A stretch of DNA of 33,073 bases, filler included. It is 12 parts of 12 records of this genome, joined end to end, with 100 filler letters (N's around TTAATTAATTAA, not from the genome) between each part and the next. Parts side by side here need not be neighbours in the genome. Positions count along the whole stretch, not along the records: positions 30,776 to 33,073 come from SRR11831580_8166; 11 more parts are not named here. One strand, given 5' to 3'. A model generated the notes under the pieces. The model saw only the letters and a list, made by a program, of their open reading frames with translations. It made no database searches and had not been told where the DNA came from. A program made the position numbers and the translations under genes. This document shows positions 2,762-33,073 of the stretch, one piece after another (the stretch's first letter is position 1; the number at the start of each line of letters is the position of its first letter).

Positions 2762-2797
2762 AATAAAGTTAGTTCCAGTACATACTAATAAATATTT

Positions 2798-6184: not shown

Positions 6185-7949
<1,765 letters not shown>

Positions 7950-7956
7950 CGTTTAT

Positions 7957-7978: not shown

Positions 7979-7987
7979 GCGCATGAA

Positions 7988-8577: not shown

Positions 8578-8588
8578 TCGGACTGCAG

Positions 8589-10678: not shown

Positions 10679-10707
10679 CCTGTGTCCATATTACGTGGGT
10701 AGGATCA
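10679..10707. mobile_element. IS3: IS3 terminal inverted repeat (contig breaks inside the IS)
   Basis: Minus strand TGATCCTACCCACGTAATATGGACACAGG is an IS3 end; its TGA supplies the stop codon of yaiT. Confidence 0.92.
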
Positions 10708-12165
10708 ATCAGCCCCCCACCCAGTAGATTCGGTCAACGCAACAGTACTGTAGGAGTTAATAGTCAGATGATCGGTATCAACGTAGCCATCTTCACCAAT
10801 GTTCAGCGAAGAACCGTTAGTTAAATCGATAGTATCTGAAGTTAATTTAGATTCCGAAACATTAACCTGAGAACCATTATTAACTGTCAAGGTATCAACG
10901 ATGGAACGACCTGTAGTATCCCATTCAGAACCGTTATTCAACGCTACGTTAAATACACCGCTCTGGAAGACCTTGTCATCAACAACACGTTTCCAGTCAT
11001 TGTTTTCATATGTTGCATCAGGAGTAAGGCTGTTTGTAGCAACATCATACATTGCTGACGTTTCAGCAACGTTATAAATTGCCTGACCAACCCACTTGCT
11101 TCCGTTATCGAGAGTGAGATTTAGTTCATCAACGTTGAGGCTATCATCAGTCCAACCCCCGTTGGTATCTTTCACCCCGTCACCGTTGGAATCATGACCA
11201 TTCGGATCAAAATTACTATTCCAGGTGCTGGTAAAGGCAACATCACCCATCAGCGTTGAATTGCTGAGGAATACATTGTTCTTCATCGCATAGTCGGAAC
11301 CTGAAGCAGTAAAGGACATTGCAACATCACCCGGGCCAGCATAATCACTCGGTTCATCAGAATTGCCAAAGTGACCAGTTTTGCCATAAGTATTGCTATC
11401 CAGGATATAATTTGAACCCGAAGTCACTGTGGAATCTTTTACAGAGATATTGTTATCCCAAGTATGAGATTCGGTAGTGTAGGTTTCGTTGTAAGTATTA
11501 CCTTGAGATAATGCAATACCTGCAACGCGGGAGTTATTGGAAATATTGATGTTACTTTCTACATCAAGATTAACAGCAACGCCTTCACTTGTATCAAATG
11601 TCTCATTTGTGTGCTTGGTTACATCACCATCTTTATAAGAATCAGTGAAGTAAAGAGCTTCATAATCATCATCAATAGTAGTGTTAGCAATGTTCAAAGT
11701 GAAAACATCACCATCACGCCAGTGTGTATCAACAACCGCATCAGTGTAAAAATCATATCCACCCAGATTATTACCATCTGCATCAAAACGATCATAATAA
11801 CCGCCAGGCAGCATAGAAGTAATCGAACCGTGAATCACTGAATTACTGATATCAAGCTGATTAGCAGTACTGTCTGCATAATCATGGTTCAAATAATAGG
11901 TTGAGATCGTGCCGTTAACGGTATCGCCGTTAAAGGACTGATCGAAATCACCATTGGTGTTGTTGTAATAGACAAAACCACTATAGTTTACATAGTTGCC
12001 ATCTACAGTGCCTGCCTTATCCATATGATCCCAATCAAGTGCTGTAACGGGATTATCGATATAAGTCCAGGTATCATAGTTTGCTGCATTAGCCTGAGAG
12101 GTGATAGCCAGAGTGCAAGCCAATGCTAATTGTGATACTACAAGTTTCTTTTTCCAGGAGTGCAT
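10705..12165 (-). pseudogene. yaiT: Autotransporter N-terminal (passenger) fragment interrupted by IS3
   Basis: Signal peptide MHSWKKKLVVSQLALACTLAITSQANA, N/D/T/S-rich beta-helix-like passenger, no beta-barrel; ends exactly at the IS3 end; divergent from hemB. Confidence 0.93.
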
Positions 12166-12688
12166 TTGTCATCCCTCCTCAGGGACGTAATAAGTTGATC
12201 CATCAATTATCAATGCATAGAAAACATATTATGTTTCGCGCTAACGATTATGCTGCGTTACAGACGAATGGTTCAATTATTCTTTCCCCTAAGTCCGAAT
12301 GTGGACATATATAATTTATGGAGAAAAACACGCATCAAATTCATAAAAGCACAGTATTTCAACATGTTGCAGATAATTTTGTTTTTGAAGCATACGCATA
12401 ATAAATATCACAAACACAAACCAGATAAATATCCTATGAATATGCAACAAAGTTTTAATTATTCAATTTATAGCAGCGCAACCAAACTCCAAAAAATAAT
12501 AACCAACAGCTATAAATAAAGATTAAAAATATTTTCAGTGAATATAAAATTATTGCTGTTTCTATTAAAAAGATGTCCTGGCCTCTCTTCCATTCTCTTC
12601 TTGTCAACATCGCGACAACTTTCGTAAAACATCCCTACCCTGCTTCAGGTATACTATGCCCCTCGATTCCACAAACATCAGGCAGACC

Positions 12689-13239
12689 ATGACAGACTTA
12701 ATCCAACGCCCTCGTCGCCTGCGCAAATCTCCTGCGCTGCGCGCTATGTTTGAAGAGACAACACTTAGCCTTAACGACCTGGTGTTGCCGATCTTTGTTG
12801 AAGAAGAAATTGACGACTACAAAGCCGTTGAAGCCATGCCAGGCGTGATGCGCATTCCAGAGAAACATCTGGCACGCGAAATTGAACGCATCGCCAACGC
12901 CGGTATTCGTTCCGTGATGACTTTTGGCATCTCTCACCATACCGATGAAACCGGCAGCGATGCCTGGCGGGAAGATGGACTGGTGGCGCGTATGTCGCGC
13001 ATCTGCAAGCAGACCGTGCCAGAAATGATCGTTATGTCAGACACCTGCTTCTGTGAATACACTTCTCACGGTCACTGCGGTGTGCTGTGCGAGCATGGCG
13101 TCGACAACGACGCGACTCTGGAAAATTTAGGCAAGCAAGCCGTGGTTGCAGCTGCTGCAGGTGCAGACTTCATCGCCCCTTCCGCCGCGATGGACGGCCA
13201 GGTACAGGCGATTCGTCAGGCGCTGGACGCTGCGGGATT
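12689..13239 (+). CDS. hemB: Porphobilinogen synthase (ALA dehydratase), 5' part
   Basis: [28 protein letters not shown] (zinc site)..[10 protein letters not shown]; cut by linker sequence at 13240. Confidence 0.98.
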
Positions 13240-13264
13240 CGTAATAACTTCGTATAGCATACAT
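13240..13264. other. Partial 454 Titanium paired-end linker (loxP arm + spacer); library artefact
   Basis: CGTAATAACTTCGTATAGCATACAT: loxP 13-bp arm ATAACTTCGTATA plus spacer GCATACAT at 13244-13264, preceded by CGTA as in the linker. Confidence 0.93.
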
Positions 13265-13364: not shown

Positions 13365-14807
13365 TTTTTTATGTTGCTCGGTCAGCACTATCTGCCGCTT
13401 AATCCACAGCAGTTGCCAGGGCTGTCGTGGGATCTGGCGCTGAATACCGCCGTCAGCTTTGTCACCAATACCAACTGGCAATCTTATAGCGGTGAAACCA
13501 CGTTGAGCTATTTCAGCCAGATGGCGGGCTTAACGGTGCAAAACTTTCTTTCTGCCGCCAGCGGGATTGCGGTGATTTTTGCCCTCATCCGTGCGTTTAC
13601 CCGCCAGAGCATGAGCACGCTCGGGAATGCCTGGGTCGATCTGCTACGCATCACGTTATGGGTGCTAGTCCCTGTGGCGTTGTTGATTGCACTGTTTTTT
13701 ATTCAACAAGGTGCGCTGCAAAACTTTCTGCCTTATCAGGCTGTGAATACCGTTGAAGGAGCGCAACAGCTGTTACCCATGGGGCCTGTAGCTTCTCAGG
13801 AAGCGATCAAGATGCTCGGTACTAACGGCGGTGGCTTCTTTAATGCCAACTCGTCGCATCCGTTTGAAAACCCAACCGCACTGACCAACTTCGTGCAGAT
13901 GCTGGCGATCTTCTTGATCCCAACGGCGCTGTGCTTTGCCTTTGGTGAAGTGATGGGCGATCGCCGCCAGGGGCGCATGTTGCTGTGGGCGATGTCAGTG
14001 ATTTTTGTCATCTGCGTAGGCGTGGTGATGTGGGCAGAAGTTCAGGGTAATCCTCATCTGCTGGCACTGGGCACGGACAGCAGCATCAATATGGAAGGTA
14101 AAGAGAGCCGTTTCGGCGTGCTGGTCAGTAGCCTGTTTGCGGTCGTGACGACGGCGGCTTCCTGTGGCGCGGTGATTGCGATGCATGATTCGTTTACCGC
14201 TCTCGGTGGCATGGTGCCGATGTGGCTGATGCAAATTGGTGAAGTGGTGTTCGGCGGTGTCGGTTCTGGTCTTTACGGCATGATGCTGTTTGTCCTGCTG
14301 GCGGTGTTTATTGCCGGGCTGATGATTGGTCGTACACCGGAATATCTGGGTAAAAAAATCGACGTACGCGAGATGAAACTGACTGCACTGGCAATTCTGG
14401 TTACCCCGACGCTGGTGCTGATGGGCGCGGCGTTGGCGATGATGACCGACGCCGGACGTAGCGCCATGCTCAACCCTGGCCCGCATGGTTTTAGCGAAGT
14501 GCTGTACGCCGTGTCATCCGCCGCTAACAACAACGGCAGCGCCTTTGCCGGATTAAGCGCCAACTCTCCGTTCTGGAACTGTTTACTGGCGTTCTGCATG
14601 TTTGTCGGTCGCTTCGGGGTGATTATCCCGGTGATGGCAATTGCCGGTTCGCTGGTGAGTAAAAAGAGCCAAGCCGCCAGCTCCGGCACGCTGCCAACGC
14701 ACGGCCCGCTGTTTGTTGGCCTGTTAATCGGCACCGTGTTGCTGGTTGGCGCACTGACCTTTATCCCTGCCCTGGCGCTTGGTCCGGTGGCGGAATATCT
14801 CTCCTGA
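13365..14807 (+). CDS. kdpA: K+-transporting ATPase subunit A (5' end missing)
   Basis: Selectivity-filter motifs [23 protein letters not shown]. Confidence 0.98.
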
Positions 14808-14829
14808 TGATATTGAGTGAGCACTGAAT

Positions 14830-15439
14830 ATGAGTCGTAAACAACTGGCGCTATTCGAACCAACACTTGTCGTTCAGGCGCTGAAAGAAGCGGTGAAAAA
14901 ATTAAACCCGCAGGCGCAATGGCGCAATCCGGTGATGTTTATCGTCTGGATCGGCAGTCTGCTGACCACCTGTATTAGCATCGCGATGGCAAGCGGTGCG
15001 ATGCCCGGCAATGCGCTGTTTAGCGCGGCCATTAGCGGTTGGCTGTGGATCACCGTACTGTTCGCTAATTTCGCCGAGGCGCTGGCAGAAGGCCGCAGTA
15101 AAGCGCAGGCCAACAGTCTGAAAGGGGTGAAAAAAACTGCCTTTGCCCGCAAGCTGCGTGAGCCGAAATATGGCGCTGCGGCGGACAAAGTTCCTGCCGA
15201 CCAACTTCGTAAAGGCGATATCGTACTGGTAGAAGCTGGCGATATTATCCCCTGCGATGGTGAAGTTATTGAAGGGGTGCATCGGTCGATGAAAGCGCCA
15301 TCACCGGGGAATCGGCACCGGTGATCCGTGAATCCGGCGGCGATTTTGCCTCCGTCACCGGCGGCACGCGTATTCTTTCTGACTGGCTGGTGATTGAGTG
15401 TAGCGTTAACCCCGGCGAGACATTTCTGGATCGGATGAT
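14830..15439 (+). CDS. kdpB: K+-transporting P-type ATPase subunit B, 5' part, with an apparent 1-base deletion at G-run 15274-15277
   Basis: [21 protein letters not shown]; continues in the shifted frame as [22 protein letters not shown] (TGES motif). Confidence 0.96.
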
Positions 15440-15539: not shown

Positions 15540-16777
<1,238 letters not shown>

Positions 16778-16792
16778 TTATCTTTTAGGCGT

Positions 16793-17347
<555 letters not shown>

Positions 17348-17428
17348 TTAATTCAGGATTGTCCAAAACTCTACGAGTTTAGTTTGACATTTAAGTTAAA
17401 ACGTTTGGCCTTACTTAACGGAGAACCA

Positions 17429-17906
<478 letters not shown>

Positions 17907-17928
17907 GAAATATACAACGATCCCGCCA

Positions 17929-18216
17929 TCACCAGGCCATCTGGCTGGGGTGCTTAACCGTAAGTCTGACGAAATCAGTATAGTCAATGAGAATGATGTC
18001 GTTCGAAATTTGACCAGTCAAACCGCGGGCAATAAGGTCTTCGTTCAGGGCATAGACCTTAATGGGGGCATTACGCAGACTTTCAAGGTAGCGGTTACCG
18101 TCAACTGCGGCAGTTACGCCATCTTGCAATAATAGCAGTTCGTCTCCTTCACTGAGCAGACGCAGCAGCGCAGCAAAATCCGTCAGCCAGGGTGAGCGAT
18201 GTAATGTGTGCAGCAT
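17929..18216 (-). CDS. tusB: Sulfur relay protein TusB (YheL)
   Basis: 95 aa [24 protein letters not shown]; upstream of rpsL. Confidence 0.96.
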
Positions 18217-18223
18217 AAACGCC

Positions 18224-18433
18224 TCAAAACCTCAAAATAACATCGTAGTTGGCGAGTTCGCGGCGTAAGGCATCTGCTTCGAGCGGCGTGGCTTCGACAA
18301 CAAAGGGTGTCTGCGGATCTAACCCGCGTTCGCGCAGTGAAGCCGCACAAACCCAGCACTGTTCAATGTCGTACAGACCCAACAATTTAAAAGTGGCAAT
18401 GTAATCACGCGCCAGCACTGCATCGGGCTTTTG
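18224..18433 (-). CDS. tusC: Sulfur relay protein TusC (YheM), 3' fragment
   Basis: [45 protein letters not shown]. Confidence 0.94.
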
Positions 18434-19026
18434 NNNNNNNNNNNNNNNNNNNNNNNNNNNNNNNNNNNNNNNNNNNNTTAATTAATTAANNNNNNNNNNN
18501 NNNNNNNNNNNNNNNNNNNNNNNNNNNNNNNNNACGGAGATAAACTGAATGCATACACAAACATAAACATAAGCATATACACATACACATACACGACGAG
18601 AGAGATGAGTCCAACAGATAGAATGAATCAGAGGGTACGGAGCATGAACAAAACGGCGACGAAAGTTATTCCAACAGAAAATAGTTATCCACAGAACTGA
18701 GTATCCAAGCACATAAGGTGAAGGTGATATGGTTGTACTCACAGAAACACACAGAAATACATATAAACAAACACAAACACATACACACACACATCACGCG
18801 AGGGAGAAACCGACACATCTACATCATACACGAACAGCGAATGACACACGCAAAGAACTGGTTCGGGCAAACTCATGAGACACGATACACGAACGGAACG
18901 GGCAAGAATGTTGCGTCATACACACAGCGGAGTTTGCAAACGCACGAGTACATAGAGCAACAACGATGCAGGGCAGCTCACAAATCAACGCAACACGAGA
19001 ACATAATGATTGGGCTGCAAGTATAC

Positions 19027-19282
19027 CTGCTCTGCTTGCTCCTCCACGCGATCCGAGACAAGCTCGCCCTTGGTCGGGTGCAGACCCAATGTGCCACTCA
19101 CAAAGATGAACCCATTCGCACGGATGGCTTGGCTGCAGGATTAGCACCACAGTTAGTTGTGTCACAAGCGGAAGTGCGCGATCCACGTGATAAATTGCGA
19201 CTGAAAACTATGAGATGTCGGAATACCTGTAAGCACCGATAGCAGCGGGTGCGAGGGCGCTATTAATTACCTCCTTCAACAT
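19027..19282 (-). CDS. Eukaryotic RidA/YjgF/UK114-family protein, first two exons
   Basis: Exon1 19282-19227 and exon2 19132-19027 (94-nt GT..AG intron, phase 2) give MLKEVINSALAPAAIGAYSQAIRANGFIFVSGTLGLHPTKGELVSDRVEEQAEQ, the classic Rid N-terminus (APxAIGxYSQA..FVSG). The next donor at 19026 opens an intron that runs off the contig. Not in the ORF track. Confidence 0.9.
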
Positions 19283-19503
19283 GATTGGATGGAAAAACGA
19301 ATGCCATTTATCGGCAACTTCGCTATCTAAGCTGGCGTAGATTAAATCATGTCCTCATGCTGTCAGACATGTTCTGACACCGTGACGAGTTTTTTGTATG
19401 CGCACACAACACGCCACTTTCACCGCTGTCCATCGGTAGTTCCTAGTTTCTCCAGCATCGTTAGTCCATAGGCTCCGTCCTTGAACTATTGTGACGGGAA
19501 ACG

Positions 19504-19725
19504 ATGGCGAAGAAAAAGAATCTAATTGTTCGATTGCTCTCCACTGCTGGAACTGGATTCTTTTATCTTACGCAAAAGAACCCGCGTACTGTCCCTCAGA
19601 AAATGCAGCTTCGTAAATACGACCCTGTGGTTCGCCAACATGTCATTTTTGCGTACGTTGTGCTCTCTTCTTCGTCAACAGGTTCGCCTTACTCAACTGT
19701 TCTGCGTAGAGAGGCTAAGAAATGA
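19504..19725 (+). CDS. Nuclear-encoded organellar (mitochondrial-type) ribosomal protein bL33, 2 exons
   Basis: Exons 19504-19652 and 19710-19725 with a 57-nt GTACGT..TAG intron; spliced 54 aa [54 protein letters not shown]. Confidence 0.92.
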
Positions 19726-20730
19726 AAGACTGCCGCTTTCAAGTTATTATTTATGGTGGTAATGTGTCAATGGACTACTGTGAGACGCCGTTCCACTGCT
19801 CTCACTGTGCACCAGCTGGCGGCCCCGTCCAAGATGAACCACAAACCCACTGAGCGTGACGGCTGTTGTGTGCGCACTTGCGGCGACACGGGTACTTTTA
19901 CATGGGGTTATCTCTAGGGGCGCAATACAATGCTTCTTTTGCTTGTTTTTTTCCTACCAAACATGGGGTCTGAAATGCAGCCAGAGGACGAACGCAAGCA
20001 CGCTTACACTCACCACACACACGCAGATCCCCTCACTCTGCAATAGACAGAAGCCGCTAGGGTGCTCACTCCTCCGTGTTGTTGGGTGCATGCGTGTATG
20101 TGTGCGTGCGTGCGCTTTGCACTGTTCGGTCGTGCTGTGGGAAGATCTCTCATACGGTGTCTCTGGGACACACACACACAGCGGTGATGACGGCGGTGAC
20201 CATGGGTGGTGGTGGTGCTGGCTTGTAGATAGTTGCGCAGAGCGGCTGGAAAATTTGTTGTTCATAGCACACGCGCACACAGCCTGTATACAATACGTAC
20301 ACGTAGAGAGCCAGCACACTCACACACAGCACAGCCAGAGCGCGTTCTCCTAGTTTGCGCGATCGAAAACGGGACCATGATTCCCGCCGTAGAAAAAAAA
20401 CACACAGGGCCATCGTAGCGTATATATTGTTTTGTAAAACTTTCACACATAGAGAGGAGCGATTGCTCTCCGAGACACATCGAACACCGTCTTGGTCACA
20501 AGACACCACCGCCACCACCACGCGCATAGCACAGCACACCATCGTGGATACCATCATGCGACGTTGTGGTCATAAAATTAGACGCGCTTGTTTGTCACAT
20601 GAAACAAGTGATAAGCTAAACTACTCTTTCNNNNNNNNNNNNNNNNNNNNNNNNNNNNNNNNNNNNNNNNNNNNTTAATTAATTAANNNNNNNNNNNNNN
20701 NNNNNNNNNNNNNNNNNNNNNNNNNNNNNN

Positions 20731-21306
20731 GGAGATCCACGACAACAGCAACGGAAAAATACGCAGCACGTTGTCGATGACAGTATTGAGATCGCTCGCC
20801 CAGCGCAGGGAGAGCAAATAGGAACTGATCGCCAGACTGGCCCCTGCCAGCAGCGGCCCCAGCGTTAAAATCATCCAGTACACGGCGAACGAGTAAATTT
20901 TTGGTCGCGCTCGTTTACTGCGCCAGATGGTATTCAACGCGCTATCGATGGAGTACATCAACAATAACGCGGTGACGATCAGCCCGCACGCCCCAACGGC
21001 GGTCATCTTGTTGGAATTGGCAACAAATTGTTCGATATACCGCTGAATAACATCGCCAGTAGCAGGCAGAAAGTTGGCAAAAATAAAGTGACGTAACTGA
21101 ATGCTGACGTCGGAAAACATGGGAAAAGCGGCGAAAAGCGCAAAAACAACGGCAACCAGCGGCACTAATGAGAGCAACGACACATAGGCAAGGTTACCTG
21201 CCAGGGTTGTCATGTTGTCCTCATCAATGCGTTGCCAGAGTAGTTTTAGCCAGGCCCATAGTGGACGGGTACGGTGCCTGGCTTTGTCCTGAATGGTTTT
21301 TAGCAT
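20731..21306 (-). CDS. yihY: YihY/BrkB family inner membrane protein, 5' part
   Basis: [32 protein letters not shown]. Confidence 0.95.
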
Positions 21307-21899
21307 AACACCTTCGCGAAATAGTCCGGGATGGTGGTTTTATCTTTCACCAGAATACTGGTAATGCCCAGCTGATTGGCTCCTTCTATATTATCGGCGT
21401 TATCGTCGAAAAAGACCGTATCGCTGGGTGAAAAACCTTCCGCCTGCAAAACATGCTGGTAAATTCGTGCTTCAGGTTTGCGCATCCCCAGATCTTGCGA
21501 CAGATAGATATGGTCAGCAGCATCACGAATTTCCGGGTATTCTTCCGGCCAGAAGGTGGTATGCAGGCGGTTGGTATTGGAAAGCACCACCACGCGATGC
21601 CCCTGCTCACGCAGTTTATGCATGATGGCGATCACTTCCGGGCGCAGCGCAACAAACACCGCCTGCCAGCCGTGAGAGAACTGCTCGTAGCTTAGCGGTA
21701 GAGCCATCTCATGACACAGCGCCTCTGCGAACGCTTCGTCGCTAATTTCCCCACGCTCATGCTGATGAAACGCCTCCCCCATATGAAAACTCTTCTTAAG
21801 CGATGCCAGCGGAATACGCGTTAAATCGCTCCAGGCTCCCAGCACACGGTTAAAGTCGATATCGACAATCACATTACCTAAATCAAAGATATAGAGCAT
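21300..21899 (-). CDS. yihX: Alpha-D-glucose-1-phosphate phosphatase (HAD)
   Basis: ATG 21899, 199 aa; FDLGNV, LSNTN, RKPE and FFDD HAD motifs. Confidence 0.96.
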
Positions 21900-21997
21900 T
21901 TTTGCCTCCTTTCGCGCCACAAGAAATTAACTGTAGCGGGAAAGGATGGGTTTGGCTATGTGGCAAGGTATGAAGCCAGGTTAACGGTCACAAAAAT

Positions 21998-22782
21998 CTA
22001 CGCGTCTTCCTGGGGAAGAATGATTTCAATTTGGCTGTCTTGTAAGCGTGATTTTAGCGCAGCGGGCGGCAGCTCGTCGGTAAAGAGCGCAGTGACCTGT
22101 GCCACGTTACCAATTTCAACCGCCGCCGAAGCATGATACTTAGTGTGATCGGCGACCAGCAGAATATTTCTCGCGTGCGCCATCATCGTTTTCACCACGT
22201 TAGCTTCGTTTACATCAAACTCCATCAACGCGCCATCGCTCTCAATCGCCCCAACGCTTGTTACCAGATAATCAGCACGAAAATCAGCCACAAAGGACGC
22301 CGCTGAAGGGCCAATGATCCCGCTATTATGAGAGCGCAACGTACCGCCGGGCACCATCACTTCAAAGCGCGGGTTGTGGTAAAGAATATGCGCCACACGC
22401 AGGCTGTTGGTGATTATCCGCAAATGATTATGGTTAAGTAACGCCCGGGCAACATGCTCAACAGTCGTACCAATGGTGATAAATATTGTTGAACCATCAG
22501 GAATATAGTCTGCCACCGCTTCGGCAATCGCTTTTTTTCCTCGGTTTGCGAAACCTCACGCTGCTCGAACGCCGTATTAACGACGCTGGAAGCCCGACCC
22601 GCGCCACCGTGATGGCGCGTAATCAGGCCTTGCTCGCTTAATTTACGAATATCCCGGCGGACCGTCTGCGTGGAGACATCCAGCAGATTTGCCAGCTCAT
22701 CAATATTCATATACCCACGCTCGGCGATCAGCATGAGGAGTTGGTCGTGCCGCGGGTTACCGGTTAGTTCGGTAAGGCTCAT
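21998..22782 (-). CDS. yihW: DeoR-family sulfoquinovose regulator CsqR (YihW), with an apparent 1-base deletion in T-run 22532-22538
   Basis: HTH half (VSTQTVRRDI) and sensor half (IGTTVE..ADHTKY) are in different frames; the 785-bp span is one short of an intact 261-codon gene. Confidence 0.94.
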
Positions 22783-22815
22783 GAAAATTCCTCGAAAAAC
22801 CATCACCCTGGCATT

Positions 22816-23231
22816 TTATACAAAAAGTGACAAAAAAGATCGGGTTTGATCACAGTCAGGGATCCCGGCTCGTCCACCGGGACGTGTGCATTTTAACGCC
22901 GCTACACCGCTGGCGAAGCGGACTGACTCCGCTAAATCCCCACTTGTTGCCAGCGCCACCGCCAAAGCGCCGTGAAAAACATCACCCGCACCTGTGGTAT
23001 CTACCACATCAACTTTGAAGGCCGGTTGATGCTGACGCCCACCATTTTCCAGCCAGTCGCAGCCTGCGCTACCCTGGGTCACATAGACATGACCATTTGT
23101 GAGCGTTTGTGCCTGTTTTAGCGCACTGGCCATCTCTTTCACGCCCGTTAAGCGCGCCAGACCCGGTTCTGAAAAGGCCGCGTGATCGCTTAATGCCACC
23201 AGCTCACTGATATCCTGCGGCGTAATGTCCC
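22816..23231 (-). CDS. yihV: Sulfofructose kinase (PfkB family), 3' part
   Basis: VTQGSAG and VVDTTGAGDVFHG PfkB signature; upstream of yihW. Confidence 0.94.
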
Positions 23232-23331: not shown

Positions 23332-23520
23332 TTTTTACAAAACCGCGATGCGCAGGCCGTTCAGCGCCAGCGCGTGGCCGATAACTTTCCCGGCAGCGAT
23401 GCCTATTACAACTATGTGCTGACCCTGTTTGGACAAGGCTGGGATCAACACCGTTTCCGCTTCTCGACAAAAGGTGAGTTATTACCTGACTGGGGCCAGG
23501 AATGCGCAAATTCACACTAA
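23332..23520 (+). CDS. bcsZ: Endoglucanase BcsZ, 3' fragment
   Basis: [50 protein letters not shown]; overlaps the bcsC start. Confidence 0.93.
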
Positions 23521-25769
23521 ACATATTCACGCTTTCCCTCGGTCTGGCCGTCATGCCGATGGTCGAGGCAGCACCAACCGCTCAGCAACAGTTGCTGGAG
23601 CAAGTTCGGTTAGGCGAAGCGACCCATCGTGAAGATCTGGTGCAACAGTCGTTATATCGGCTGGAACTTATTGATCCGAATAACCCGGACGTCGTTGCCG
23701 CCCGTTTCCGTTCTTTGTTACGTCAGGGCGATATTGATGGCGCGCAAAAACAGCTCGATCGGCTGTCGCAGTTAGCGCCGAGTTCAAATGCGTATAAATC
23801 GTCGCGGACTACGATGCTACTTTCCACGCCGGATGGTCGTCAGGCACTGCAACAGGCACGATTGCAGGCGACGACCGGTCATGCAGAAGAAGCTGTGGCG
23901 AGTTACAACAAACTGTTCAACGGTGCGCCGCCGGAAGGTGACATTGCTGTCGAGTACTGGAGTACGGTGGCGAAAATTCCGGCTCGCCGTGGCGAAGCGA
24001 TTAATCAGTTAAAACGCATCAATGCGGATGCACCGGGCAATACGGGCCTGCAAAACAATCTGGCGCTATTGCTGTTTAGTAGCGATCGCCGTGACGAAGG
24101 TTTTGCCGTCCTGGAACAGATGGCAAAATCGAACGCCGGGCGCGAAGGGGCCTCTAAAATCTGGTACGGGCAGATTAAAGACATGCCCGTCAGTGATGCC
24201 AGTGTGTCGGCGCTGAAAAAATATCTCTCGATCTTTAGTGATGGCGATAGCGTGGCGGCTGCGCAATCGCAACTGGCAGAACAGCAAAAACAGCTGGCCG
24301 ATCCTGCTTTCCGCGCTCGTGCGCAAGGTTTAGCGGCGGTGGACTCTGGTATGGCGGGTAAAGCCATTCCCGAACTACAACAGGCGGTGCGGGCGAACCC
24401 GAAAGACAGTGAAGCTCTGGGGGCGCTGGGCCAGGCGTATTCTCAGAAAGGCGATCGCGCCAATGCAGTGGCGAATCTGGAAAAAGCCCTCGCACTGGAC
24501 CCGCACAGCAGCAACAACGACAAATGGAACAGTCTGCTGAAAGTAAACCGCTACTGGCTGGCGATCCAGCAGGGCGATGCTGCGCTGAAAGCCAATAATC
24601 CTGACCGGGCAGAACGCCTGTTCCAGCAGGCGCGTAATGTCGATAACACCGACAGTTATGCAGTGCTGGGGCTGGGCGATGTGGCGATGGCGCGAAAAGA
24701 TTATCCCGCCGCCGAACGTTATTATCAGCAGACCTTGCGTATGGACAGCGGCAACACTAACGCCGTGCGCGGGCTGGCAAATATTTACCGCCAGCAATCG
24801 CCAGAAAAAGCTGAAGCGTTTATCGCCTCGCTCTCTGCCAGTCAGCGGCGTAGCATTGATGATATCGAACGCAGCCTGCAAAACGACCGTCTGGCACAGC
24901 AGGCAGAGGCACTGGAAAACCAGGGCAAATGGGCGCAGGCGGCAGCACTTCAGCGGCAACGACTGGCGCTGGACCCCGGCAGCGTATGGATTACTTACCG
25001 ACTTTCGCAGGATCTCTGGCAGGCCGGACAACGCAGCCAGGCCGATACGTTAATGCGCAATCTGGCGCAGCAGAAGTCGAACGACCCGGAGCAGGTTTAC
25101 GCTTACGGGCTGTACCTCTCTGGTCATGACCAGGACAGAGCGGCGCTGGCGCATATCAATAGCCTGCCGCGTGCGCAGTGGAACAGCAATATTCAGGAGC
25201 TGGTTAATCGACTGCAAAGCGATCAGGTGCTGGAAACCGCTAACCGCCTGCGAGAAAGCGGCAAAGAGGCAGAAGCGGAAGCGATGCTGCGCCAGCAACC
25301 ACCTTCCACGCGTATTGACCTCACGCTGGCTGACTGGGCGCAACAACGACGTGATTACACCGCCGCCCGCGCTGCATATCAGAATGTCCTGACGCGGGAG
25401 CCAGCTAACGCCGACGCCATTCTTGGTCTGACGGAAGTGGATATTGCTGCCGGTGACAAAGCGGCGGCACGTAGCCAGCTGGCGAAACTGCCCGCTACCG
25501 ATAACGCCTCGCTGAACACACAGCGGCGCGTGGCGCTGGCACAGGCGCAGCTTGGCGATACCGCAGCAGCGCAGCGGACGTTTAATAAGTTGATCCCGCA
25601 GGCAAAATCTCAGCCACCGTCGATGGAAAGCGCGATGGTGCTGCGTGATGGTGCGAAGTTTGAAGCGCAGGCGGGCGATCCAACGCAGGCGCTGGAAACC
25701 TACAAAGACGCCATGGTCGCATCCGGTGTGACTACGACGCGTCCGCAGGATAACGACACCTTTACCCGA
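23502..25769 (+). CDS. bcsC: Cellulose synthase outer-membrane TPR protein BcsC, 5' part
   Basis: Signal peptide followed by tandem TPR-like helical repeats; follows bcsZ. Confidence 0.96.
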
Positions 25770-25873
25770 NNNNNNNNNNNNNNNNNNNNNNNNNNNNNNN
25801 NNNNNNNNNNNNNTTAATTAATTAANNNNNNNNNNNNNNNNNNNNNNNNNNNNNNNNNNNNNNNNNNNNAGAA

Positions 25874-25906
25874 ATAAAAAAAGCCCAAGGCGTTAACCTC
25901 GGGCTT
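25874..25906 (-). terminator. Intrinsic terminator tR' of the phage late operon leader
   Basis: Minus strand AAGCCCGAGG-TTAACG-CCTTGGGCTT followed by TTTTTATTT. Confidence 0.9.
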
Positions 25907-25943
25907 GAATTTTTTTGGCTTCGGAACGACTGAACGTATTCCC

Positions 25944-25985
25944 AGCGTTAGAGATGAATCTATCCAGTTTTTCCGCGAAATGCAA
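25944..25985 (-). promoter_or_regulatory. Phage late promoter pR' with sigma70-dependent pause element (qut region)
   Basis: -35 TTGCAT (25985-25980), 17 bp, -10 TAGATT (25962-25957), then AACGCTGGG, similar to lambda's AACGATGGG pause-inducing -10-like element. Confidence 0.85.
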
Positions 25986-26027
25986 TACCTATTTCCTATA
26001 TATTTTCAACATTAGGGAAAATTATTT

Positions 26028-26837
26028 TCATCTCGTTACTTTTGAGAGAATGGAATCAGCCATAGACTCCTGTTTATGGCATTCGGCGACCAACTCCTCA
26101 AATAGCGGCTGAAGTTGCTCATATGCCGCCGTTTTCTTTATCTCCGCAACAGTATTAACGCCCTCAATTACCGTTGAGAACTTAAGCCTGGCGTAACCTC
26201 TACCACCGCAGCGGTCGCAGGCTTTCATTACTGGAACGCCCTGGCGATCGCTTTCTGCCTTGTCCAGCACCTTACCTTTGCCATGGCAGCGACACGAATT
26301 GCTGATAACGCCTTTTCCGTTACACGGCTTGCACTTAACTCGCACCACCTCACGCGCCTGTGTCCAGCTCTCCCAGTCGCTTGGGCGAACGGCACGCGAC
26401 ATTTTCGACCAGTAAGGCGGTTTCCCCCATGGGTATGAGACCTTGTTGGTAAACACTTGCGCCTCTGTAAATCCGCCACCATCACAGCAATCACATTTTC
26501 GAGTGCTGGCAGCACTTCTTGAATAATCCTGGTATGCAAAAGCGCAGAGAACCTTAAGCACGCCTGACCGAGCTGATTCATCGAGTTCAGACAGTGCTCT
26601 GAATTTACCTGATAACTTACGTGCCTGCTCATAGAGTCTCTCCAGTGCTATATCTGGGCTGCTAATGCCGATTTTCGAGAGGTAAAGATCGAAACCAAAC
26701 CCGCACTTGTGGCCAGCAAGGCCAAGCGCCGCCATAACGTCAGTGCCGGTGAGACTGTCTGATGCGGTTGCGCGAGGAGAGTCACTGAACATCGGTGATT
26801 TAGGCGCAAAGTATTTAGCGATTGATTCGAGGTTCAT
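26028..26837 (-). CDS. Q: Lambda-family late antitermination protein Q
   Basis: MNLESIAKYFAPKSPMFSDSPRATASDSLTGTDVMAA..FAYQDYSRSAA..CHKQESMADSILSKVTR parallels lambda Q termini; followed by pR'/tR'. Confidence 0.93.
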   Translation of the reverse strand: MNLESIAKYFAPKSPMFSDSPRATASDSLTGTDVMAALGLAGHKCGFGFDLYLSKIGISSPDIALERLYEQARKLSGKFRALSELDESARSGVLKVLCAFAYQDYSRSAASTRKCDCCDGGGFTEAQVFTNKVSYPWGKPPYWSKMSRAVRPSDWESWTQAREVVRVKCKPCNGKGVISNSCRCHGKGKVLDKAESDRQGVPVMKACDRCGGRGYARLKFSTVIEGVNTVAEIKKTAAYEQLQPLFEELVAECHKQESMADSILSKVTR

Positions 26838-26953
26838 TATGCGGCTTCCTTCTGTGGCTGGTGGGTTTTGGTCTGGCTGTGCTTTACTATTGGCGGCATG
26901 CTGGCGCGCTTAACGCTTTCGGCCTGGTATCGGGTTATCTCGTCTCTGGTCAT
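26837..26953 (-). CDS. Small phage hypothetical protein (38 aa)
   Basis: MTRDEITRYQAESVKRASMPPIVKHSQTKTHQPQKEAA*; GGAGG RBS, ATGA overlap with the upstream gene and TAATG overlap with Q. Confidence 0.75.
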   Translation of the reverse strand: MTRDEITRYQAESVKRASMPPIVKHSQTKTHQPQKEAA

Positions 26954-27156
26954 GATGGCCTCCGATTCCAGGCGCGAATTGCATCGCGCTTTGTTGGATA
27001 GGTGTCAGTTATCGGCTTAATCAAGCATTGCTTTGTTGAACAACCGGCGTAGACACCATCACCATCAGAAAAAAGTTCTGCGCCGCCGCCACAGAACGGA
27101 CACTCAAGCAGAAAAGCCCAATGAGGTAGCTTGAGATCGAATATCATTGGTTTCAT
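26950..27156 (-). CDS. Lar-family (restriction alleviation-like) zinc-ribbon protein
   Basis: LECPFCGG..GCSTKQC..AIRAWNRR signature; ATGA-coupled to ninG. Confidence 0.78.
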   Translation of the reverse strand: MKPMIFDLKLPHWAFLLECPFCGGGAELFSDGDGVYAGCSTKQCLIKPITDTYPTKRDAIRAWNRRPS

Positions 27157-27794
27157 GCTGCCTCCCGCTGTTTCAGTGCTTTGAGCTTGTCGCGGTACTC
27201 ATCCCGGATCCGGATGAAGTCTTCACGGCGGTAGTTGGTCATTTCGTGGGGACCATTGAGCCAGTTGACGTATCCCTGACCGTAACGAGCGACCAACCCA
27301 GCTTCGTATTGCTGCGCCACGGTCGCCTCTTTGGCGGTGTACTTGCCAGCTCCGGCATTACAGGATTTGCACTGCTTATGGGCGTTGCGTTCTTCAAAGC
27401 GCAGTTCAGGGTAAGCACCTACTGTCTTGAAATGGCCGCAATCCCACTGGCCACCATGCAGATCAGGCGGATTGGTCTCGCCGCAGCTGATGCATGGCAA
27501 ATCGGCGTCGCGCGCACGGATAAAGGCGTTGAAAGCTTTCTGAGCCTGAGCCTTGTAGTATCCGTCTGGCCTGAGCTCTGCCAGCCGCTCCTTGCGGCGT
27601 TTGCGCCCGTCCTTTTCAGCCTCTTTTTGCTCCTTGATGCGCTTAGCCGCGGCTTTCACCTTCTCCTTCTTGCGTTCTTCCATTGCGAGGATTGCGCCAT
27701 GCTCCGGGCTGCACCACCGGATCCGGATGTCGTGGAATTTCGGCACGAAGTATTCACCGCATACTTTGCACTTACGGCGGGATGGTTTACGCAT
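27153..27794 (-). CDS. ninG: NinG/Rap recombination endonuclease
   Basis: Likely ATG 27794: [49 protein letters not shown]. Confidence 0.92.
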
Positions 27795-27971
27795 GGGCAC
27801 CACCTTGAACCTGTACCAGCGTGAGGTTTCCGCAGAACACGGCACCAGTATCGATGTACATCTGGTTGGCATACTTCAGGGGCTGGCGCGCAGGGGTGTG
27901 GCCGAAGATAAACAGATCAGCACCAGCTATCGGCGAGACAATGCCGTCCTGAGCGTCGCTAACCCGTTCAC
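27787..27971 (-). CDS. ninI: NinI-like Ser/Thr protein phosphatase, 3' fragment
   Basis: Not in the ORF track: [60 protein letters not shown], closely resembling the lambda phosphatase C-terminus. Confidence 0.9.
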
Positions 27972-28071: not shown

Positions 28072-28273
28072 TACCTCTCTCTATTACTGGGAAGGTAAGC
28101 TGGAGCAAGAATACGAAGTGCAGATGATTTTAAAAACTACCGTATCTCACCAGCAGGCACTGCTGGAATGCCTGAAGTCTCATCATCCATATCAAACCCC
28201 GGAACTTCTGGTTTTACCTGTTACACACGGAGACACAGATTACCTCTCATGGCTCAACGCATCTTTACGCTGA
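28072..28273 (+). CDS. cutA: Divalent cation tolerance protein CutA, 3' part
   Basis: [46 protein letters not shown]. Confidence 0.95.
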
Positions 28274-29945
28274 TCCTGCTACTTTGCAGCACTTCCGTTT
28301 TTGCCGGATTATTCGACGCGCCGGGACGTTCACAATTTGTCCCCGCGGATCAAGCCTTTGCTTTTGATTTTCAGCAAAACCAACATGACCTTAATCTGAC
28401 CTGGCAGATCAAAGACGGTTACTACCTCTACCGTAAACAGATCCGCATTACGCCGGAACACGCGAAAATTGCCGACGTGCAGCTGCCGCAAGACGTCTGG
28501 CATGAAGATGAGTTTTACGGCAAAAGCGAGATTTACCGCGATCGGCTGACGCTTCCCGTCACCATCAACCAGGCGAGTGCGGGAGCGACGTTAACTGTCA
28601 CCTACCAGGGCTGTGCTGATGCCGGTTTCTGTTATCCGCCAGAAACCAAAACCGTTCCGTTAAGCGAAGTGGTCGCCAACAACGCAGCGCCACAGCCTGT
28701 GTCTGTTCCGCAGCAAGAGCAGCCCACCGCGCAATTGCCCTTTTCCGCGCTCTGGGCGTTGTTGATCGGTATTGGTATCGCCTTTACGCCATGCGTGCTG
28801 CCAATGTACCCACTGATTTCTGGCATCGTGCTGGGTGGTAAACAGCGGCTCTCCACTGCCAGAGCATTGTTGCTGACCTTTATTTATGTGCAGGGGATGG
28901 CGCTGACCTACACGGCGCTGGGTCTGGTGGTTGCCGCCGCAGGGTTACAGTTCCAGGCGGCGCTACAGCACCCATACGTGCTCATTGGCCTCGCCATCGT
29001 CTTTACCTTGCTGGCGATGTCAATGTTTGGCTTGTTTACCCTGCAACTCCCCTCTTCGCTGCAAACACGTCTCACGTTGATGAGCAATCGCCAACAGGGC
29101 GGCTCACCTGGCGGTGTGTTTGTTATGGGGGCGATTGCCGGACTGATCTGTTCACCATGCACCACCGCACCGCTTAGCGCGATTCTGCTGTATATCGCCC
29201 AAAGCGGGAACATGTGGCTGGGCGGCGGCACGCTTTATCTCTATGCGTTGGGCATGGGCCTGCCGCTGATGCTAATTACCGTCTTTGGTAACCGCTTGCT
29301 GCCGAAAAGCGGCCCGTGGATGGAACAAGTCAAAACCGCGTTTGGTTTTGTGATCCTCGCACTGCCGGTCTTCCTGCTGGAGCGAGTGATTGGTGATGTA
29401 TGGGGATTACGCTTGTGGTCGGCGCTGGGTGTCGCATTCTTTGGCTGGGCCTTTATCACCAGCCTACAGGCTAAACGCGGCTGGATGCGTATTGTGCAAA
29501 TTATTCTGCTGGCAGCGGCATTGGTTAGCGTGCGCCCACTTCAGGATTGGGCATTTGGTGCGACGCATACCGCGCAAACTCAGACGCATCTCAACTTTAC
29601 ACAAATCAAAACGGTAGATGAGTTAAATCAGGCGCTCGTTGAAGCCAAAGGCAAACCGGTGATGTTAGATCTTTATGCCGACTGGTGCGTCGCCTGTAAA
29701 GAGTTTGAGAAATACACCTTCAGCGACCCGCAGGTGCAAAAAGCGTTAGCAGACACGGTCTTACTTCAGGCCAACGTCACGGCCAACGACGCACAAGATG
29801 TGGCGCTGTTAAAGCATCTTAATGTCCTTGGCCTACCGACAATTCTCTTTTTGACGGACAAGGCCAGGAGCATCCACAAGCACGCGTCACGGGCTTTATG
29901 GATGCTGAAACCTTCAGCGCACATTTGCGCGATCGCCAACCGTGA
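28249..29945 (+). CDS. dsbD: Thiol:disulfide interchange protein DsbD, with an apparent 1-base deletion in T-run 29848-29852
   Basis: ATG 28249; [26 protein letters not shown] and WCVAC motifs. The normal C-terminus [30 protein letters not shown] is in the shifted frame. Confidence 0.96.
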
Positions 29946-29981
29946 ACGACACTTGCAGTGGGAAAGACGGAGGAAAATAGC

Positions 29982-30557
29982 GTGCAACGTGAAGATGTAC
30001 TGGGAGAAGCCCTGAAATTATTAGAATTACAAGGGATTGCCAACACCACGCTGGAGATGGTTGCTGAACGTGTGGATTATCCACTGGACGAGCTACGCCG
30101 CTTCTGGCCAGACAAAGAGGCAATCCTCTACGATGCGCTGCGTTATCTTAGCCAACAGATAGATGTCTGGCGTCGTCAGCTGATGCTGGACGAAACGCAA
30201 ACCGCCGAACAAAAGCTGCTGGCACGTTATCAGGCGTTATCGGAGTGCGTTAAAAACAACCGCTATCCGGGCTGTCTATTTATCGCTGCCTGTACGTTTT
30301 ATCCCGATCCTGGCCACCCTATTCATCAACTGGCCGATCAGCAAAAAAGCGCGGCCTACGATTTCACCCACGAACTGTTAACCACACTGGAAGTTGACGA
30401 TCCGGCGATGGTAGCAAAGCAGATGGAACTGGTGCTGGAAGGCTGTTTAAGCCGAATGCTGGTGAATCGTAGCCAGGCGGATGTCGACACTGCACATCGG
30501 CTGGCGGAAGATATCCTGCGCTTCGCCCGCTGCCGCCAGGGTGGTGCATTGACCTGA
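29982..30557 (+). CDS. yjdC: TetR-family regulator YjdC
   Basis: GTG at 29982 after GGAGG; 191 aa with N-terminal HTH and GCLFI motif; between dsbD and pheU. Confidence 0.93.
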
Positions 30558-30624
30558 CAGAAACACAGAAAAGAAGCGATTTGCCGCAATCTTAAGCAGT
30601 TGAATCGCTTTTACTGAAATTAGG

Positions 30625-30660
30625 TTGACGAGATGTGCAGATTACGGTTTAATGCGCCCC
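30625..30660 (+). promoter_or_regulatory. Stable-RNA sigma70 promoter of pheU
   Basis: TTGACG-17bp-TTTAAT followed by the GC-rich discriminator GCGCCCC. Confidence 0.8.
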
Positions 30661-30663
30661 GTT

Positions 30664-30675
30664 GCCCGGATAGCT
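30664..30675 (+). tRNA. pheU: tRNA-Phe, first 12 nt only (contig breaks in the repeated tRNA)
   Basis: GCCCGGATAGCT is the 5' end of E. coli tRNA-Phe; downstream of yjdC. Confidence 0.85.
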
Positions 30676-31142
30676 NNNNNNNNNNNNNNNNNNNNNNNNN
30701 NNNNNNNNNNNNNNNNNNNTTAATTAATTAANNNNNNNNNNNNNNNNNNNNNNNNNNNNNNNNNNNNNNNNNNNNCACGAAAACAAACGCATCGTCCATG
30801 GAGCAAATCTCTGTTACTTGGAAGTTCCTACAGCAAACGTTAAATACAGAATAGATAACAGATAACATTACAAGCAGAATACAACGTACCACTCAAAGCC
30901 ATGAAAACAAACGGATACCACAAACAGATCTGCAAACATCAGAGCCATGGGACACACAGCACACACCGACACGCACATGGGTGGACAGACAACGCCCAAA
31001 AATGCGTGCGACAGACACGAGCATGACTGTGACACACCGCCGTGAACCGGACAACATGAGAACAAGCAGAATTTGACCTATCTACGTGTTTGACACCAAG
31101 TCTGCTCAAATTTCTCAACACATTTCTGTGTTGCCCATATTC

Positions 31143-33073
31143 ATGCCGCCGCATTCGTGCAGAAACTGCAATCAAGGCTTTGAGACCAAAGGTGCATATC
31201 TCAAACACTTTGACGTTCGACGGGATTGTGGACGAATCTGCCCGCCATTCACGTGCGTGAGATGTGGACGGGGGTTCACCAAACGGAACTCGCTGGCATC
31301 GCACTTGGATGTTTGTCATTTGCCACGTATGTCAGTCTGAAATCAATAGTTGTTGATGCGCATGAATGCTCATTTCAATTTACAGAACACGGATTAGAAT
31401 ACGAAGACCCCGTTCAATTTACTGCTAACGACCGGGATGCATCTCCAATTAGACAAGATTTCTCTGCAGCCGATCTGGGTGCGTTACGTGTCATTGTGTG
31501 CGTGATTGTGCATGCGTGCAGGCTTCGCCACCTTCATGCTGACTGCATGTGTGTTTATATACCAGAGGATGCAAACACCACCGCCTCCGTTATAGCAAAG
31601 CAGATCGTGCTGCTTCGCTTACACCACTCTGTATCTGAGCGTGCCCTGGATGCTGTCGTCGAGTGTCTGCGGACAGCAGCTAGTGACGACTTGCGGTTCG
31701 AAACGGAAGGCAGCAGCGCTGTCAGAGCGCTTGCATGAAGTGAGTTCCTCCGCTCAGCGTAAGTTGTGGGTGCAGACCCATTATCATCCTCCAGTACGTA
31801 CATGTATTCTACGTAGTATATACATCCTCCGTGGAGACTCGTGTCGTGCGTGTGTGTGTATGGTTTAACTGTTAAGTTTTCTCTGTGTAGAAAGTCTCTC
31901 TCCGTACGGTTGGAGAATGTAGATGGGCCCGGGTCTCCCTCATTGCTGCGATCGCAATGCTCGACGACCAGTTCGGTGATCTTGGAGCCCTCGCAGAACG
32001 GTTTTTTGAGGATTATGTTCTTCCAGCGGGCCACATCGGAGCGCTGGTGTGTCCTGCATCTGGTACAAACTTCATGGATACAGCGTGCTTCCGGGACCGT
32101 CGTCGCCTCGCTATCACCTTGTACTTCGACGGGGTGGCGACCTCCAGAAACGCCTTGGGCAGATCAGCAGTGGCCAGCCGGAAGTATCACGTCATTTCGT
32201 TTCGTATTGCTAACGTACCGCAAATGATGAAGGACAGCAATTGTATTCTTCCCATAGCCGTTGTTCCTCCGGATGCGTGGGAACTGCTCGGATTCGACGC
32301 AGTTATGCAGGACATCACGCGCGACCTTCAACTTCTCGACGCGGGTACGTGCATGCATTTGTGTCTCTGCGTGTATGACGTAAATTGCCGCGCCGCCGCG
32401 TGGATGGCTTCTATTGTATGTGTGTATATGTGTGTATATGGTTGTTTCGGTGTGCGTGTGTATAGAGATGCGTATGTACTATATAGTGAATAGCTTATGC
32501 GTACTTGTGTATATTCATGCATGAATGTACTTAGATATAGTGTATGTGTCCGTGATCGAGGCACTGACTGTGACGCAAACTTGTGTATACAGGCGTAGTC
32601 ATGAGGAAAACGGGCCGCGTAGTTACAGCTGCGTTATTGAGCATACACGCCGACAACGAGGCGGCACAGGTAGCTGCAGGCGTAACAACTTCAAGTGGCA
32701 CTTTGTTCTGCCGCCAGTGCACGACGGACAAAAGAACAATGCATGATTACGCTATGTACGTCACTTGATGCTTTACGTGCTGTTTGTGTAAATTCATGCA
32801 TCTCCGTGTGGATATAACAATTACATTCGTGTAGGAGTTGCCGTTTTGTAAGAACAACGTCGTCCTCGTTCGAGCCCGCCTGGCGGGCGCTTGAAGTGGC
32901 TGCAGCCATCGGCACCGCGACTACCACTACTGTCAGCACAGGGATCAAGCGGGTGTCAGCCGTGCGGGATATTCCAACGGCTCGACCGCGGTTTCATACC
33001 CTCTTTGCGCAAGATGTCATGCACGACTGGGCGGAGGGTGTCCTGGGTTGGTTTGTACAGCGAGCTTTGCGGC
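31143..33073 (+). mobile_element. Spliced eukaryotic gene: two N-terminal zinc fingers + CMC/EnSpm(CACTA)-like DDE transposase; 3' end beyond window; one frameshift near 31731
   Basis: Exons 31143-31326, 31386-31478, 31566-31793, 31891-32344, 32593-32755, 32835-33073 with GT..AG introns. Motifs: LYFDG..NALG..K..ISFRIANVP, HADNEAA..G, FCRQC, GIKR, QDVMHDWAEGV. Confidence 0.8.

Follow-up and report, generated by a model that had tools for sequence, protein, structure and literature searches.

We describe part of a transposase gene on the plus strand at positions 31143-33073 of a 33,073-base stretch of DNA, referred to below at its full length as the window, where it occupies a eukaryotic contig of its own, 2.3 kb long and free of linkers inside (30776-33073). 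The gene is probably the transposase of a DNA transposon from a rare lineage, as yet unnamed, within the CMC/CMCT group, which comprises CACTA/EnSpm, Mirage, Chapaev and Transib with their allies. The host is a eukaryote whose introns are short and whose non-coding DNA is GT/CA-rich. The lineage is called unnamed relative to Pfam and the protein databases; Repbase and Dfam lie outside the comparison, and the literature search was aimed at motif definitions, not at absence from print. What the contig carries is the 5' two-thirds of the gene, cut short by the contig end. An earlier note on this DNA had proposed a transposase of CMC type, and the proposal is borne out by the order of the motifs, by the prominence of Transposase_21 in the ESM Atlas and by the fold matches of a modelled relative, P0005, to RAG1, Transib and BbRAGL.

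Gene structure

The gene model, which was built by locating splice sites and translating the letters of the contig, has six exons and five GT..AG introns that join into one reading frame, still open at the end of the window. Its parts, and the sequence that precedes them, are as follows.

30776-31142, plus strand: upstream non-coding stretch, A/C-rich, in which no element end is definable
31143-31326, plus strand: exon 1, with the ATG at 31143 and two C2H2-type zinc fingers
31327-31385, plus strand: intron 1, 59 nt, GTATGT..TTTACAG, phase 1
31386-31478, plus strand: exon 2, acidic linker of 31 codons
31479-31565, plus strand: intron 2, 87 nt, GTGCGT..ATACCAG
31566-31739 (alternative ends 31720 or 31758), plus strand: exon 3, helical segment, conserved in the metagenome contig L001
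31740-31890, plus strand: intron 3, 151 nt (or 132-170), GTGAGT..TGTGTAG, phase 0 under the 31740-donor model
31891-32344, plus strand: exon 4, N-terminal helices, then strands 1-3 and helix 1 of the predicted RNase H-like core
32345-32592, plus strand: intron 4, 248 nt, GTACGT..TATACAG, phase 1
32593-32755, plus strand: exon 5, predicted second catalytic Asp (HADNEAA) and C(2)C motif (CRQC)
32756-32834, plus strand: intron 5, 79 nt, GTACGT..TCGTGTAG, phase 2
32835-33073, plus strand: exon 6, cut by the window end, with the MH motif (DVMHD)

The donors, in order, are GTATGT, GTGCGT, GTGAGT (or GTAAGT), GTACGT and GTACGT, and the acceptors are all YAG. Intron 2 is in frame and free of stops, and may be retained. 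The consensus donors of exon 3, GTGAGT at 31740 and GTAAGT at 31759, can be joined to exon 4 only with a one-base change of frame within 31652-31736. When all pairs are enumerated, however, ten GT/AG combinations give joins without a frameshift, the most plausible of them using a weak donor, gct/GTCAGA, at 31721. The frameshift in exon 3 is likely but not forced, and depends on the donor that is chosen. Of the earlier description of six exons with matching phases and a single frameshift, the splicing into one frame is upheld and the frameshift becomes conditional. Because either a weak donor or a one-base correction is needed in exon 3 as assembled, the copy in the window may be decayed or may carry a sequencing error.

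In the upstream stretch there is a 17-nt direct repeat whose two units, 30776-30792 and 30900-30916, have 88% identity. The first unit opens the contig, of which the first letters are CAC, but this is too little for calling a subterminal repeat or an element end.

Domains and catalytic residues

The translation contains all the landmarks that the earlier note had listed, namely two zinc fingers with exactly the spacings it gave, an acidic linker, a helical segment, and then LYFDG, ADNEAA, CRQC and DVMHDWAEGV. Finger 1 (C-x2-C-x12-H-x6-C) lies at 31158-31229 and finger 2 (C-x2-C-x12-H-x3-C/H) at 31257-31322. By their endings, H-x6-C and H-x3-C/H, both are C2HC-like variants, and the Pfam zf-C2H2 profile (PF00096) matches exon 1 over two stretches with an E-value (E) of 5.1e-5 and 23.9 bits, just below its cut-off of 25.2 bits. 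The fingers are probably a DNA-binding domain. Exons 1 and 2 have no homologue support, and their basis is the open frame, the match of phases and, for the fingers, this profile.

The first catalytic aspartate is predicted to be that of LYFDG (32128-32130) and the second that of HADNEAA (32652-32654). The Asp of LYFDG (D80) and the Asn of an ANVP motif (N108) are invariant in a 21-row alignment of exon 4. The C(2)C motif, CRQC (32709-32720), is kept in P0004 and P0005, two of the relatives described below, and in L001, and the MH motif, DVMHD (33013-33027), has DPMHD as its counterpart in L001. The catalytic glutamate and the H(3-4)H motif would lie past the end of the window, as had been foreseen for the glutamate. 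L001, which continues beyond the point at which the window stops, has H(4)H in the form of FHYALAH and the glutamate in FAFES, 24 residues further on; its full series thus reads FFDG, HADNEA, CRQC, DPMHD, FHYALAH, FAFES. The diagnostic order, as given in the accessible parts of PMC12730594 and PMC4079192, is C(2)C, [M/L]H, H(3-4)H, E; the CMC motif definitions of Yuan & Wessler 2011 are taken here second-hand from these same two partial sources.

The enzyme would be a cut-and-paste transposase of the Asp-Asp-Glu (DDE) type, excising the element, reinserting it and leaving short target duplications. The C2H2 fingers may bind the ends of the element, and the two aspartates and the glutamate would hold the catalytic metal ions. 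In RAG1 the ZnC2 and ZnH2 modules bind structural zinc, and by analogy C(2)C and H(4)H could jointly do so here; the Pfam name RAG1_ZnC2 appears in the ESM Atlas labels for P0005. A hairpin intermediate has been reported for Transib and RAG1, and excision may proceed through a similar one.

Homologous sequences and evidence of coding

Exon 4, searched by phmmer in a set of 1.84 billion representative proteins at E<=1e-3, gave 21 matches, 14 of them at E<=1e-10 and the best at 5.3e-46. One match, P0020, a bacterial-type repeat protein of 1725 residues with E 9.3e-4, was excluded, leaving 20 accepted relatives, all of them short open reading frames of 98-275 residues. Nine relatives are 45-57% identical to exon 4 of the window, with no closer one. 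Ten of the 21 matches were looked up, and every one proved to be a single-member cluster, found on 1-3 contigs, each 1.1-6.7 kb long and assembled from a metagenome or a sequencing run; two are called 'hypothetical protein', and no other name occurs among the ten. Word-indexed protein searches with exon 4, with P0005 and with a first family alignment (A1) found no longer or named relative, and neither these searches nor the exhaustive phmmer run found an annotated full-length one. P0005 has 47% identity with exon 4, also spans exon 5 and reads straight through the position of intron 4, which it lacks, and P0004 has an in-frame insert at the same junction; the exon 4/5 junction is thereby confirmed.

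A pattern search for related loci, for which a second alignment (A2) was used instead of A1, the latter being too divergent for search patterns, gave a single locus from 161 pattern matches in metagenome contigs, and none from 40 pattern matches in viral contigs or from 36 in genome contigs. The one locus, L001, is a metagenome contig of 6,678 bases that was fetched with its flanks. Translated comparison (tblastx) of the window with L001 is collinear through exon 3 (55% identity over 22 residues), exon 4 (51% over 142), exon 5 (58% over 57) and exon 6 (52% over 81). The exon stretches of L001 are all open, amounting to about 697 residues up to a stop at 3243. Its introns 4 and 5 fall at the same codon positions and in the same phases as those of the window (phase 1 and phase 2, respectively), and its intron 3 can be placed at the position of the window's intron 3, the two intron sequences being unrelated.

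Outside the exons the two loci have little in common. Intron lengths differ, intron alignments score barely above shuffled controls, and no non-coding similarity was found between window and L001; similarity at the DNA level is confined to exon 5 (73% over 94 nt). Identity at the three codon positions is 0.61/0.67/0.38. Nonsynonymous divergence (dN) is 0.47-0.48 and synonymous divergence (dS) is saturated, being undefined by NG86 and 2.67 by LWL85, so that the dN/dS ratio is unusable. The codon-position identities and dN, taken with introns that score close to shuffled sequence, indicate that the transposase protein has been under selection.

These comparisons also bear on the idea that there is no real gene here, but an open frame arisen by chance or unrelated pieces joined wrongly in assembly, which we find hardly credible. 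It is true that the window is artificially concatenated, with nine of its 12 pieces apparently cloning-host DNA, and that the transposase contig is short and of unknown quality. Homology with E-values down to 5e-46, however, refutes the idea for exons 3-6. The order of the exons is moreover collinear with that in an independent metagenome contig, there is a signature at the third codon positions, and 30776-33073 is without linkers. Exons 3-6 are thus real coding sequence, far beyond chance.

L001 has some features of its own. It begins with (CCACA)n at 1-160 and ends with (CACTA)n at 6590-6678. The latter was considered as a CACTA terminus and rejected, since pentanucleotide units repeat there as a microsatellite where the contig breaks off, mirrored by the (CCACA)n run at the other end; the two microsatellites are probably assembly break points. 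Past the transposase stop, from 3244 to 6560, there are more open stretches on the plus strand (for example 5328-5747, 5758-6180 and 6168-6548), with no Pfam match, which could be a second gene of the element or a host gene.

Fold and family assignment

Language-model features place the protein closest to Transposase_21. In the ESM Atlas the top feature match of P0005 (0.95, with 193 of 256 features) is to a cluster labelled 'Transposase family tnp2', in which 64% of the members carry PF02992. The Transposase_21 family set accounts for nine of 30 matches, compared with two for the RAG1 set and one for Plavaka, and Plavaka and RAG1_RNase_H each score 0.92. When the Atlas is compared by structure, a Transposase_21 cluster, with a template-modelling (TM) score of 0.73, is the sole cluster to reach the naming bar. 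For the exon of L001 that carries the E motif, the neighbours in the Atlas include clusters with DUF4218 on 11-12% of their members, a recognition that is below threshold and a lead only. DUF4218 (PF13960) is also the sole Pfam family listed for this H(4)H-E exon (E 0.16 and 0.25, 12.2 and 11.7 bits, under the 27-bit cut-off). It is a domain that accompanies Transposase_21.

Structural comparison agrees with a CMC/CMCT assignment. The AlphaFold model of P0005, from a 23-row alignment, has a predicted local distance difference test score (pLDDT) of 79.7 and a predicted TM score (pTM) of 0.74. After a set of helices the chain runs b1-b2-b3-a1-b4-b5, and the strand order of this modelled core is RNase H-like. 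The first Asp sits where b1 ends, and the second immediately follows b5. VIA-align, run with the model against 48,161 representative chains, puts RAG1 at the top (Z 6.6, 164 residues aligned, root-mean-square deviation (rmsd) 5.6), together with HzTransib (Z 6.3, 115 aligned, rmsd 3.9), three more RAG entries and BbRAGL (5.3); the first unrelated row stands at 3.7. With Foldseek against the PDB, the matches listed are RAG1 and HzTransib only, down to rank 46, the best E being 3.6e-4 and two rows having E<=1e-3. A model of the window's own exon 4 (pLDDT 90.7) returns the same six RAG1, HzTransib and BbRAGL entries at the top of VIA-align, with Z 5.6-4.5 against 3.9 for the next. The structural match gains weight because the same family tops two aligners and two models.

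Several results weigh against this assignment. At E<=10, Pfam gives nothing apart from DUF4218 for exons 2-6, P0005, six other relatives and the exons of L001, and PF02992 (Transposase_21) in particular is unmatched by the window exons, the seven relatives and the L001 exons; every query was one exon or an incomplete protein, so that sensitivity was reduced. The family profile, when searched against PDB sequences, gave four chance matches, with no transposase and no RAG1 or Transib among them, and neither this search nor Pfam provides a sequence-level link to any named transposase family. The value of 0.95 in the ESM Atlas is reached by one of 100 shuffled proteins, and Z values of 5-7 are middling on VIA-align's own scale. 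Foldseek with the half-domain model of exon 4 finds nothing at E<=0.001; its best E is 0.38, with RAG1 rows mixed with dihydrolipoamide dehydrogenases.

The family is thus one that Pfam does not recognise and that is detectable only by fold and language-model features. The earlier note had called it divergent, which agrees with the failure of every Pfam transposase model to match the exons, the seven relatives or L001 above threshold. The Pfam profiles of Transposase_21 and Plavaka remain unmatched, and the model of P0005 gives an RNase H-like structural match.

Does the gene belong to CMC proper (EnSpm/Mirage/Chapaev), or to a Transib/RAG1-like branch or another CMCT lineage such as Plavaka, ESTA or Lanisha? 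We know of no solved structure of a CMC-proper transposase, and for this reason the PDB cannot separate CMC from Transib. That RAG1, HzTransib and BbRAGL are the only solved-structure matches accords with a placement outside CMC proper, as do the scores of RAG1_RNase_H and Plavaka in the ESM Atlas, but it cannot discriminate. Also in favour of such a placement, the entire CMCT group has C(2)C and H(3-4)H in common, according to the available portion of PMC12730594. On the other side, the ESM Atlas puts Transposase_21 first, both by number of matches and as the only cluster named by structure, the E-motif exon touches only DUF4218 in Pfam, and the MH motif fits the [M/L]H position of Chapaev (PMC4079192, as far as its accessible text goes). 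We therefore regard a placement outside CMC proper as quite unlikely.

Transposon or domesticated gene

The earlier note read the five host-style introns as a sign of long residence or domestication, an inference that finds no support here. The introns are a family trait, not a sign of taming, since introns 3-5 are shared with L001, which is 51-58% identical, P0005 lacks intron 4, and Chapaev transposases with two exons have been published (PMC4079192, from the part available). The introns predate the split of copies now about 50% identical, genes of several exons are reported for transposases of this group, and the argument does not hold.

Domestication does not depend on the introns alone. 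On this alternative the gene would be a transposase-derived host gene, single-copy, with ordinary introns and kept by selection in a protist group, and the window would hold an orthologue or paralogue, possibly mis-sequenced. We think this unlikely, though it has to be taken seriously. It would account for exons under purifying selection beside introns that have diverged past alignment, with intron positions and phases common to copies 51-58% identical; for the fully open gene of L001, with no bracketing inverted repeats in its 6.7 kb; and for a set of only about 20 relatives among 1.84 billion representatives, ten of ten looked up being singleton clusters on 1-3 contigs. The same evidence would, however, also arise from an active transposon lineage of low copy number that is known only in pieces, on metagenome contigs. 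The catalytic and zinc motifs are all intact in L001, which fits an active enzyme, though RAG1 keeps them too. Nine relatives at 45-57%, with none closer, are more like diverged element lineages than graded orthologues, intron 4 is missing in one of the relatives, and the window copy requires a frame correction or a weak donor.

The points on either side are each weak. Four observations favour a transposon: the intact catalytic set, the nine relatives at 45-57% without a closer one, the presence or absence of intron 4, and the defect in exon 3. To the points already counted on the other side must be added that singleton clusters on a few short contigs do not look like a high-copy repeat; that no second copy was found in the other non-E. 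coli pieces of the window; that inverted or direct repeats sought as element ends came only as short, chance-level pairs in the contig and in L001; that neither inverted repeats nor target duplications were seen to bracket the gene within the 6.7 kb of L001; and that the 384 nt preceding the start codon of L001 contain no zinc-finger exons, the first 160 nt being the (CCACA)n run. We prefer the transposon of a rare CMC/CMCT lineage, and the gene is then of a kind common in mobile elements, although its lineage has been poorly sampled.

A more ambitious reading joins elements of both. The window gene and its 20 or so metagenome relatives might form a deep unnamed CMCT lineage, ranking with Plavaka, ESTA and Lanisha and confined to an unsampled protist group, with its own C2H2 head and ancient conserved introns, and surviving in some hosts as a single intact domesticated recombinase, RAG1-like but outside animals. 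We rate the chances of this as slight.

Provenance of the window

The window is an artificial pseudomolecule of 12 contigs, each of 2.1-5.6 kb, divided by 11 identical linkers of 100 nt, and adjacency inside it is without biological meaning. As the linker (N44-TTAATTAATTAA-N44) that precedes the transposase contig ends at 30775, that contig is unrelated to the E. coli DNA before it. The linkers and the pieces recognised by comparison are the following.

2570-2669 (first), with ten more, the last at 30676-30775, no strand: artificial linkers, N44-TTAATTAATTAA-N44, located by letter inspection
30676-30775: linker that parts the transposase contig (30776-33073) from an E. coli K-12 contig
1-2569, 2670-8263, 10679-13264, 13365-15439, 15540-18433, 20731-23231, 23332-25769 and 28072-30675: E. 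coli pieces, by match to the comparison genome G001
25870-27971: phage phi80, 100% identity (Q antiterminator and NinG/Rap region)
8364-10578, 18534-20630 and 30776-33073: eukaryotic pieces, without E. coli match

The eight E. coli pieces match G001, the nearest comparison genome, at 84-99%, and the two pieces that were compared with an E. coli collection are both 100% identical to K-12 strains (DH5alpha, NEB 5-alpha); one of them, 28072-30675, has 100% identity with DH5alpha. Phage phi80 is the prophage of lacZ-deltaM15 cloning strains, which fits piece 25870-27971. Together the E. coli and phi80 pieces, nine of the 12, look like cloning-host contamination of a clone-based library.

The three eukaryotic pieces stand apart by their words of GTGTG type, 17-28 per kb compared with 0-4 in the other nine. 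The transposase contig gave no match to G001, no match was found in the plasmid collection, and a search for rRNA in the window found none. The contig at 8364-10578 carries a Trs85/TRAPPC8 homologue in exons separated by introns (Pfam PF12739, E 1.3e-8 and 3.5e-3), set in non-coding DNA of the same GT/CA-rich style as that of the transposase contig, and could help to identify the host. That at 18534-20630 is GT/CA-rich and, as far as recognition goes, gene-less, its sole Pfam match being a weak one to DUF6338 (E 1.6e-3). In the E. coli piece with the waa locus there is a JUMPstart RNA element (Rfam RF01707, 55 bits) at 5827-5865 on the minus strand, which is ordinary for that operon.

Implications

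As it stands the find is a gene of an ordinary kind, present here in one incomplete copy. It enlarges the group of transposases that gave rise to RAG1 by a branch of divergent sequence, and its source organism is apparently outside the coverage of annotated genomes. Full elements, if recovered, would help to root the CMC/Transib group and would show how far transposases with the C(2)C/H(3-4)H zinc site reach among protists. The window also carries a warning for genome hygiene: linkers join contigs of E. coli K-12 and phi80 to eukaryotic inserts, and no inference from neighbourhood is allowed.

Relationship to known transposases

The nearest named relatives of the window family, by both features and structure in the ESM Atlas, are the EnSpm/CACTA transposases (PF02992 with PF13960). 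The two share the order D..D..C(2)C..[M/L]H..H(3-4)H..E, the last two members of which are seen in L001, as well as the presence of introns in the transposase gene and, weakly, DUF4218 over the H(4)H-E exon. They differ in that the window family has no Pfam match above threshold, that its copy in the window has two N-terminal C2H2 fingers, and that its relatives come only from unnamed metagenome contigs. The hallmarks of EnSpm/CACTA elements are CACTA termini, subterminal repeats and target-site duplications of 3 bp.

Chapaev elements have 5'-CAC..GTG-3' ends and target-site duplications of 3-4 bp. Their transposases are characterised by C(2)C, LH and H(4)H motifs (PMC4079192, in the text available), with which CRQC and MH of the window, and FHYALAH of L001, can be compared, and multi-exon genes occur among them, the published examples in that partial source having two exons. 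One intron or none in Chapaev contrasts with the five of the window gene, and the likeness is one of motif description, not of sequence alignment.

Transib and RAG1 (PDB 6pqn, 4wwx and 6oem, with BbRAGL 6b40) provide the best, and the only consistent, solved-structure matches to the core. In RAG1 the matched residues, 533/539-684/754, fall in the pre-RNase H and RNase H part according to the Pfam labels of the Atlas. The C(2)C and H(3-4)H motifs are shared as well (PMC12730594, in its accessible part). In contrast, identity in the structural alignments is only 9-16%, with Z values of only 5-7 and no sequence-profile match, and the ESM Atlas ranks this group below Transposase_21.

Elements of the wider CMCT clade mostly have 5'-CA..TG-3' ends and target-site duplications of 2-5 bp (PMC12730594, again from the portion available). 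Among them Plavaka, ESTA and Lanisha are recently named lineages, described in the available text from fungi and a moss. The present family has no match to the Pfam Plavaka profile, and Plavaka is among its ESM Atlas matches at 0.92. Like the family described here, these lineages are deep and divergent, and it is through C(2)C and H(3-4)H that they have been recognised (PMC12730594, same portion).

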